DNA of 42,069 bases from an uncultured Clostridia bacterium (GTDB lineage: Bacteria > Bacillota > Clostridia > TANB77 > CAG-508): positions 1-42,069 of the forward strand of contig CAJFUM010000104.1 of the NCBI GenBank assembly GCA_904420285.1. Reading direction: 5' to 3'. Positions within the stretch are counted from its first letter, which is position 1. Each line of letters begins with the position of its first letter. Below are positions 2 through 934 of the stretch, in pieces. The position numbers were made by a program, and so were the translations under genes. The notes beneath the pieces are model-generated. The model searched no databases, was not told the DNA's origin, and saw nothing but the letters and a program-made list of their open reading frames with translations.

Positions 2-934
2 ATATGGATACCAGGAGGATTTAATGTAGCGGAAGATTCAGCAACAAATGAAGATGAAGGAATAGTAATAGAAGATAGTAAAGGAAACCAATTTGTATGG
101 GTGCCAGTAAAAGATTATACAACAATGTATACAGTAGGAACAAAAACACTATGTGGAGTAACAACACAAACAACAGTGTATAGTAAAATAAGAATAAGAA
201 GCGGAGATAATAGTAGTTATACACCAACGACTCCAGGCTCAACTTCCGGAATAAGAGAGCCAGATTTAGTAGTGGGATTTGATGGAACAAGATGCGATGC
301 AAGTTCAACAAATTATAGTATACTAGGATGTAGTAGTGCAAAAGATATGGCAGATAAGATGGTAGCAGAGTATAAAGCAACATATGAGAGTATAAAGAAA
401 TATAAAGGATTTTATATAGGAAGATTTGAATTATCAGGAAGTATAACAAGTCCAACAGTGCAAAAAGGTAAGACAGTAATAACAGGCGAAAATTGGTATA
501 ATTTAAAGAAAGCATGTACAAATATAGTAAGTACAAGTTATGCTCAAAGTACAATGATATATGGAAACCAGTGGGATGAAGTAATGAGCTGGTTAAAGAC
601 AACAAAATTTGCAAGTGATCCAAGTAAAGTAGATAGTAATTCACGAAGTTGGGGAAATTATGAATATAGTACAGGAGCGGCAAAAACAGGAAGTGGAACT
701 AAAAGAACATCAGGATATAATGAAGCATGGCAAGCAAATAATATATATGATTTAGCAGGAAATTGTATGGAATGGACCCAAGAAGCACACTTCGAAGACT
801 ACCGTGGTGATCGCGGGGGCGACTGGAATGATTATGGCAATCTTCCGTTTAACTATCCGGTTTCAGCTCGCAACGGCGACTTCCCTGACGATGATAGTAG
901 CGATTGTTCCCGCCCAACCATGTACATTAAGTAA
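2..934 (+). CDS. FGE-sulfatase/SUMF1-like (C-type-lectin fold) domain protein, 5' end outside the window; C-terminus is a candidate DGR variable region
   Basis: The frame is open from the window edge; the track start at 101 is an internal GTG. Motifs GNQFVWVPV, GNQWDEVMSW, DLAGNCMEWTQE and RGG.W are typical of the FGE-sulfatase (DUF323) fold. Stop TAA at 932-934. Confidence 0.7.
   Translation: MWIPGGFNVAEDSATNEDEGIVIEDSKGNQFVWVPVKDYTTMYTVGTKTLCGVTTQTTVYSKIRIRSGDNSSYTPTTPGSTSGIREPDLVVGFDGTRCDASSTNYSILGCSSAKDMADKMVAEYKATYESIKKYKGFYIGRFELSGSITSPTVQKGKTVITGENWYNLKKACTNIVSTSYAQSTMIYGNQWDEVMSWLKTTKFASDPSKVDSNSRSWGNYEYSTGAAKTGSGTKRTSGYNEAWQANNIYDLAGNCMEWTQEAHFEDYRGDRGGDWNDYGNLPFNYPVSARNGDFPDDDSSDCSRPTMYIK
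785..925 (+). other. candidate DGR variable region (VR) at the 3' end of the FGE-like gene
   Basis: Codon style switches abruptly. In 791-925, 19 of 45 codons are NNC and 18 are NNT, with visibly higher G+C, whereas the upstream part of the same ORF is dominated by NNA codons. The scaffold RGG.W...SAR.G..P is retained. Confidence 0.55.

Follow-up and report, generated by a model that had tools for sequence, protein, structure and literature searches.

Here, we describe a variable region (VR) that was most likely written by a diversity-generating retroelement (DGR) and that lies in a 42,069-nt stretch of DNA from an uncultured Clostridia bacterium (the window: contig CAJFUM010000104.1, positions 1 to 42,069). 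The VR occupies positions 779-924, at the 3' end of the gene with which the window opens (the target gene), and it encodes the C-terminus of a putatively pilin-like surface protein with a predicted FGE/C-type-lectin fold. A previous reading of the nucleotides without database searches (the sequence-only reading) had proposed that this tail looks like a DGR variable region. The proposal was upheld at the level of the target family, in which hypervariability falls in residues 256-301, six relatives carry complete DGR cassettes, 93% of the mismatches between template repeat (TR) and VR are at TR adenines, and the same change of composition is found. A composition step alone appears to be enough for recognising a DGR variable region in raw sequence, with the retroelement itself out of view.

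Composition, limits and fold of the variable region

The codon usage of the target gene changes abruptly close to its end. Our recount of the third codon positions in 791-925 gave the 19 C, 18 T and 8 A or G reported in the sequence-only reading, and the dominance of NNA among the upstream codons was also as claimed there. Of the 47 codons of 785-925, 20 end in C, 18 in T, 4 in A and 5 in G, whereas the 261 codons that precede them in the open reading frame (ORF) comprise 144 ending in A, 78 in T, 30 in G and 9 in C. C-ending codons thus make up 43% of this segment and only 3.4% of the upstream part (Fisher test, p = 3e-12 for C at the third position and 1e-9 for C or T). Among 9,765 other 47-codon stretches from the 31 ORFs of the window, the maximum number of C-ending codons was 10. 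When 41,929 stretches of 141 nt were ranked, the one starting at 785 had the lowest A fraction of the window (0.22 vs 0.435 overall), and its GC content (0.53 vs 0.27 overall) was within 0.01 of the window maximum, which belongs to the stretch from 774/775. A 100-nt profile shows the composition rising at ~751-800 and falling after ~930. The composition flip at the end of the target gene is real and beyond chance.

The limits of the VR were transferred from the TR/VR pairs of six relatives. Within them, the codons of the family scaffold (R268, R271-G-G, P286.S.R290, P295 and S303-R-P) are separated by hypervariable positions, and a three-codon insertion (LPF) distinguishes the window copy from most of the family. 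Depletion of adenine together with NNC and NNT codons, which is the footprint of AAY template codons, is present with values as in proven VRs. Two short stretches of the VR, 811-824 and 868-881, form a direct repeat (TCGCGGGGGCGACT and TCGCAACGGCGACT, encoding R-G-G-D and R-N-G-D), which is probably a mere similarity of scaffold.

In the sequence-only reading, the run tcccgccc (908-915) had been likened to an initiation of mutagenic homing (IMH) element. It is part of the conserved S-R-P stretch and coincides with the IMH position of the relatives, and the TC.CG.CC core of the window sits as in proven VR 3' ends, for example GGCTTCCGCCCAGCTTTG at locus L156 against ...CCAGCTCTA in its TR. The position of the run fits the earlier suggestion, and 905-924 is regarded as a candidate IMH.

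The target protein has 1218 amino acids as called. Its gene (662-4318 of L001, the left part of the 49,620-bp contig scaffold_1241 of ENA metagenome ERZ28574451, in which window position 1 is L001 3385) starts 2.7 kb to the left of the window, and the tail peptide ends in ...HFEDYRGDRGGDWNDYGNLPFNYPVSARNGDFPDDDSSDCSRPTMYIK* at the stop, 934. Fibronectin-III (FN3)/Ig-like repeats are present in the protein (fn3 matches in P0121). The last 310 residues had no match in Pfam, PF03781 included. An AlphaFold2 model built from 125 sequences (pLDDT 94.8, pTM 0.93) places the VR at the C-terminus of a C-type-lectin/FGE-fold protein. The top PDB match of this model in Foldseek was TaqVP (5vf4; E 2e-5, probability 1.0, 15-17% identity over 144 columns), followed by FGE, pFGE, EgtB and OvoA, all with a probability of ~1 yet with TM-scores of only 0.30-0.37. 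In addition, the motif YDLAGN.WEWT...RV.RGG of the homolog profile aligned marginally to pFGE (1y4j; E 0.016). The FGE/C-type-lectin fold named in the sequence-only reading is thus supported by the model, and the domain is predicted to be a structural member of this fold rather than a member of the Pfam PF03781 hidden Markov model. Its role is expected to be non-catalytic, because the closest structural match is a DGR variable protein.

The N-termini of the family (ERGITLIALVITIVIL) gave a weak profile alignment with type IV pilins (geopilin and PilA; E 0.03), and Glu5 of the prepilin-type signal is exchanged for A, S or T in them. The pilin-like helix of the target itself (SGITLITLVLTIIIIIILATVAIGAIFGDGGL, L001 ~497-570) shares the reading frame of the remaining gene but not that of the sole upstream start (GTG, L001 483), from which it is shifted by one base, and a TGA precedes the helix. 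The break in the reading frame, at GAGAAGC, is either a frameshift or an assembly error.

The target family and its DGR cassettes

To characterize the family, we collected homologs of the target from the protein database and obtained 6,737 sequences, in none of which the domain carries a Pfam annotation. They share the C-terminal scaffold EWTQEA..T..R..RGG....GS..PAS.R....P.......SRP.LY with hypervariable positions in between. All 19 alignment columns with an entropy of at least 3 bits fall in residues 256-301 (nt 767-904) and none in residues 1-255. A scan of GTDB species representatives yielded 79 family loci in metagenome-assembled genomes (MAGs) of uncultured gut Clostridia; the MAGs with the closest family members are labelled uncultured Clostridium sp. 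or Clostridia. Paralogs are often numerous in a MAG, with at least 13 in one genome, and nearly all of them show the composition flip, whether a reverse transcriptase (RT) is nearby or not, in hosts that were AT-rich in every case seen. A family-profile search of IMG/VR returned a single relative at 29% identity, which implies that the family is not phage-borne.

At five GTDB loci, the RT motifs IGNYTSQ...YLDD, which are of DGR type, were found in an ORF within a few kb of the target, and complete cassettes comprising target, bAvd, RT and TR were found in six relatives. The gene order at locus L144 is target, an ORF with a MutS_I domain, bAvd (PF22296, E 1e-16), RT (RVT_1, E 2e-22) and TR. The ORF between target and bAvd (L144 10989-11555) encodes 188 amino acids with MutS domain I (PF01624, E 3e-8), which would be unusual as a DGR accessory gene.

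The TR/VR pairs of these relatives (L142, L144, L148, L156, L160 and L171) differ in an adenine-specific manner: of their 140 mismatches, 130 coincide with an adenine of the TR, and AAC and AAT codons abound in the TRs. TR and VR are homologous from CAA, which encodes the Q of EWTQEA, as far as the TA of the Tyr codon in LY. Three bases before the end of this homology there is a single fixed non-adenine difference, T in the VR and C in the TR, as expected for IMH versus IMH*. The six proven VRs have A fractions of 0.20-0.24 and C fractions of 0.27-0.36, while the 600 nt upstream of them have 0.39-0.45 and 0.11-0.13, respectively. The corresponding values for the window copy are 0.22 and 0.28 in the VR and 0.43 and 0.11 upstream.

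A subfamily in which a further base follows the RG codons (CGTGGGCGGT or CGTGGTCGGC vs CGTGGTGGC) was also observed. The additional base is present in both TR and VR, as at L156 (VR 5225-5356, TR ~7603-7734) and L160 (VR 1213-1350, TR 3524-3661), and the proteins concerned (P0004, P0011, P0021, P0028, P0035, P0044 and P0055) read ...RGR in their annotation and then run off frame. Such a base occurs in ~12 of 62 GTDB loci, a frequency and consistency beyond what random error would give.

Members of the family are commonly located away from any cassette. We found remote sets of 5-8 dispersed paralogs, within one MAG or related MAGs, that are identical at non-variable columns and differ in NN doublets that precede an invariant C or T; no RT was seen up to 10 kb away from them. 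The neighbourhood of one homolog on a 320-kb contig contained neither RT nor TR within 10 kb. A target without an adjoining cassette thus appears to be the usual case in this family, and the window target is not unusual in lacking one, since the dispersed paralogs also lack a nearby RT.

Origin and present state of the window copy

In the mechanism that we propose, the RT of the DGR and a bAvd-type accessory protein would copy the RNA of a ~146-nt TR into cDNA, and the RT would misincorporate at template adenines during this copying. The cDNA would then replace the 3' end of the target up to the conserved, GC-rich IMH. In this way ~20 ligand-contacting residues on the FGE/C-type-lectin domain would be rewritten while the scaffold residues stay fixed, and the diversified domain would be placed at the tip of a long, pilin-like surface protein with FN3 repeats. 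An A-poor island of NNC and NNT codons in a gene of 27% GC would arise because the TR is C-rich with AAC and AAT codons. The window copy would have been written likewise, from a TR and RT that lie off this contig or have since been lost.

Several results weigh against a DGR origin of the window copy, or at least against its present diversification. The sequence-only reading had suggested looking for a TR, an RT and an Avd-like gene upstream on the contig, of which only 3.4 kb lies upstream of the window; none of the three was found. A blastn search for a TR over the 49.6-kb contig (word size 7, relaxed scores) gave nothing above chance; the only match of a six-frame YxDD scan of the window for a DGR-type RT was a non-RT ORF, with none at the contig ends; and PF22296 had no match among the 21 ORF products of 2-13318 or in the gene tables of the contig ends. 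We also searched for remote TRs by means of IUPAC patterns, in which each A of the VR was taken as A in the TR and each other VR base as the same base or A, with scaffold bases fixed to block matches to poly-A and N runs. Patterns for segments 803-886 and 869-919, together with a superset pattern for sibling VR alleles, had zero matches in IMG/VR, the GTDB representatives and JGI metagenomes, collections which do not contain the window locus itself. Some true TRs would escape these scans: when applied to the six known pairs, the strict A-only model held for just 16-27% of the 70-nt windows in three of them. None of the TRs fetched from the 79 related loci fits the window VR, and a shallow protein search with the 73-residue tail for sibling alleles gave seven candidates, none of that lineage. 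In three cassette-bearing MAGs, the mismatches of other paralogs to the local TR fall on all four bases, and orphan or frozen VR-like tails with no matching TR among those fetched are common in the family. Finally, the window VR is identical, base for base, in a Logan assembly that is probably from the same sample (L002) and in an 830-nt MEGAHIT contig from another sample (L211, ERZ27234802 k141_193159). The latter matches the window at 100% over a 640-nt island (~495-1135) with flanks that are ~80% identical or unalignable, so the VR has remained unchanged since this exchange. Strain-level variability confined to the segment, to which the sequence-only reading had also looked, was therefore not seen, variability being confined to residues 256-301 only at the level of the family, and there is no sign of ongoing diversification of the window VR at the assembly level.

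These observations bear mostly on a second reading, which shares its origin with the one preferred here and differs as to present activity: the VR would be the product of past writing by a DGR whose TR and RT were then lost, inactivated, or had only been visiting on a mobile element, and it would now be a fixed allele that spreads by homologous recombination. Such a frozen or orphan VR is a serious possibility, to which we give somewhat less than an even chance. It agrees with the identity of the VR in three assemblies, one of them with diverged flanks, with the failure to find a TR or RT on the contig or a TR in the three collections, and with the poor fit between paralogs and local TRs in cassette-bearing MAGs. 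However, the VR shows no drift toward the background of 27% GC, with 20 of 47 codons still ending in C, targets separated from any RT by tens of kb, or placed on other contigs, are usual for the family, and the three assemblies may not be independent. The window VR is either a remote target of an unseen DGR or a frozen copy.

Explanations that dispense with a DGR are improbable even when taken together. The neighbourhood of the target (400-1240) appears to be a mosaic, as judged from L211 and from L003 (ERZ28637924 scaffold_20568), in which an identical CpaB-like protein follows wholly unrelated upstream DNA. The target copy of L211 opens only ~160 codons before the stop. A cluster look-up of the full protein gave one further member, P0122, whose contig carries the identical VR. 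Such a mosaic would suit the import of a C-terminal cassette from a relative of higher GC content by homologous recombination or gene conversion. However, the identical island of L211 goes well beyond 779-924 and includes 285 nt of ordinary AT-rich coding sequence, so that the limits of recombination do not explain the flip; being far larger than the composition island, it records recombination and not the origin of the flip. In addition, the limits of the flip fall within a few bases of the TR/VR homology limits of the relatives, and the family hosts, all AT-rich as far as seen, have VRs that flip alike, which makes import without a DGR quite unlikely. Even less credit can be given to a composition driven by amino acids or selection, in which loops rich in Gly, Asp, Arg, Ser and Tyr would need G/C codons without any mutagenesis. 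The segment 785-925 does have many D, G, R, S and Y residues, but the bias resides at synonymous third positions and is unmatched in any other stretch of the window, and the comparable N/Y/G/S-rich tail of paralog 2, also on this contig, is written in AT-rich codons. Because this tail has the native composition, the flip is not intrinsic to the domain. The least credible explanation, with a probability close to nil, is an assembly chimera that joined a foreign fragment to the gene end. The contig is a metagenomic scaffold and several of its genes contain frameshifts, yet the same junctions are present in the independent Logan assembly and in the MEGAHIT contig from another sample, and the reading frame and family scaffold run through both boundaries. 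Writing by a DGR is accordingly the origin that we prefer for 779-924.

Genomic surroundings and known systems

The contig extends 3.4 kb beyond the window to the left and 4.2 kb to the right (window 42069 is L004 11027). From translations, it carries pknB, rsgA, rpe, pyrG, nth, rsmE, remA, rpoZ and gmk as well as ORFs resembling DNA polymerase III alpha and SpoIVB, and the first 6 kb of the window had no match in phage and plasmid collections (megablast). The contig is chromosomal and comes from an AT-rich gut Firmicute. The + strand of the window carries nearly all long ORFs, and base composition is strongly asymmetric between the strands (A 43.5%, T 29.8%, G 16.4% and C 10.3% on the + strand). 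The positions of the features discussed are listed in Table 1.

Table 1. Features of the target locus and of its paralogs on the same contig; positions refer to the window unless L004 is given
Feature	Position	Strand	Description
Target gene, 3' part	2..934	+	933 nt (310 codons plus stop); FGE/C-type-lectin-fold domain (predicted); from ORF and translation
Variable region (probable)	779..924	+	~146 nt, Q260 to Y308; A-depleted, NNC/NNT-rich; limits transferred from TR/VR pairs of six relatives
IMH-like 3' end of VR (candidate)	905..924	+	TGTTCCCGCCCAACCATGTA; invariant S-R-P-x-x-Y codons
Tandem ATATTACAGAA repeats	956..990	+	Between target stop and hairpin
AT-rich hairpin and T9	983..1035	+	Stem of ~19 bp (983-1026), 50-100 nt past stop; RNA fold -27.2 kcal/mol, z = -3.6
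Tad/type-IV-filament-type operon (putative)	1097..13318	+	Co-directional with target; from ORF calls
Paralog 2	L004 11195-12567		Just right of window; AT-rich, N/Y-rich C-terminus of native composition; frameshifts at both ends
Paralog 3	L004 15034-15194		Intact pilin-like start MKRERGITLIALVITIVIL; truncated by contig end

Downstream of the target stop there is an inverted repeat (942-952/1015-1025), which the sequence-only reading had compared with the cruciform elements of DGRs. The repeat exists, and the hairpin at this place, judging from its AT-rich stem and run of T, is probably the intrinsic-terminator-like end of the target transcript. A DGR cruciform was rejected, since the stem is AT-rich with U9 instead of GC-rich and does not adjoin the IMH.

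The operon that follows encodes a transmembrane protein, two ParA-like proteins, a CpaF-like ATPase, a 695-aa membrane protein and small proteins. The ATPase gene (3734-5712) is split over three frames (3734-4906, 4836-5138 and 5110-5712), with a Walker A motif (GKTT) in the middle piece, and reflects either a pseudogene or assembly indels. With the two frameshifts bridged, the product matched CpaF of Tad pili (8rkd/9e24) over 222 residues with E 3e-8, as a divergent homolog. The other operon proteins had no match in Pfam and NCBIfam. The pilus operon of the sequence-only reading therefore holds as regards its direction and its ATPase, while its remaining genes have no profile match to back it, and we consider a pilus-operon context of the target plausible. 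Several of the small proteins start with MENASKALI followed by a hydrophobic helix. Four small ORFs within 7864-10844 (at 7864, 8568, 9645 and 10116) begin with MENA(S/V)(K/D)AL, continue into a hydrophobic helix and look like pilin-type subunits.

A 17-mer, ATTACAGAAATATTACA, occurs in three exact copies where 0.16 are expected. Two copies (in 958-985) are situated in the gap that separates the target gene from the Tad-like operon, and the third (41675-41691) precedes paralog 2, with a variant ahead of paralog 3 (L004 ~14494). This element may serve as a regulator site common to the operon and the pilin-like genes. The leader regions of paralogs 2 and 3 also form a direct repeat of ~0.7-0.8 kb (window 41658-42069, L004 10616-11434, versus L004 14483-15194) with 84-99% identity and a spacing of 3.85 kb, which opens with ATTACA-type repeats and holds a small ORF (MNELTRESLG...).

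The target protein may function as an adhesin and may be presented together with the adjacent Tad-like system, and its display on the adjoining filament is plausible from the gene arrangement. A more far-reaching scenario would be that a trans-acting DGR diversifies a dispersed repertoire of type-IV-pilin-like, FGE-fold adhesins in uncultured gut Clostridia (up to 13 or more per genome), including a subfamily with a +1 frameshift in both VR and TR, and that this repertoire is displayed by, and co-regulated through ATTACAGAAATATTACA with, a highly divergent Tad-like filament system, as the Gram-positive analogue of the DGR-diversified type V pilus tips of Bacteroides. We put this forward only tentatively and regard it as rather unlikely in its entirety.

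With regard to significance, the analysis uncovers a large (>6,700 homologs), multi-copy family of DGR-diversified surface proteins in uncultured gut Clostridia that has escaped Pfam annotation. The practical value of the present locus is modest until its template and RT are found. In the literature searched, no description of this target family and its pilin-like architecture was found.

The archetype of DGRs is that of Bordetella phage BPP-1 (Mtd/TR/Brt/bAvd), whose target is a phage tail fibre and whose VR is followed by a GC-rich cruciform. The cassettes of the relatives resemble it in adenine-specific transfer from TR to VR, a bAvd-family protein (PF22296), an RT with the motif [ILV]GxxxSQ, a conserved IMH at the 3' end that differs at one fixed non-A position, and AAC/AAT codons at variable sites. 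In contrast, the target of the window family is a chromosomal bacterial surface protein, in the relatives the TR lies downstream of the RT and a MutS_I ORF is part of the cassette, and no GC-rich cruciform follows the window VR. Close systems are also the six relatives' cassettes, whose targets are 33-58% identical to the window target and have the same scaffold, VR limits and composition flip, although they belong to another TR lineage and are only ~400-450 aa long compared with 1218 aa. TaqVP of the Thermus aquaticus DGR (5VF4) shares the FGE-type C-type-lectin fold and a VR at the extreme C-terminus; unlike the window target, it is part of a compact DGR cassette and has no pilin-like N-terminus, FN3 repeats or pilus operon. 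FGE, pFGE and EgtB share the overall fold with the target, at an identity of only 10-15% and without a PF03781 match.

In a survey of DGR target domains, a GspG-type pilin domain is among the 'scarcely represented' ones (PMC11661182). The parallel known from the gut is the DGRs of Bacteroides type V pilus tips, which are reported to diversify pilus-associated adhesive proteins (bioRxiv 10.1101/2024.11.15.621889). That system differs from the window in phylum, in the pilus (type V versus type-IV/Tad-like) and in target architecture, and the terms 'Type IV' and Firmicutes, or words beginning with Clostridi, occur nowhere in the preprint. If copies of the present family are displayed on filaments, DGR-based variation of gut adhesins would extend from the type V pili of Bacteroides to the type-IV-like filaments of Gram-positive bacteria.

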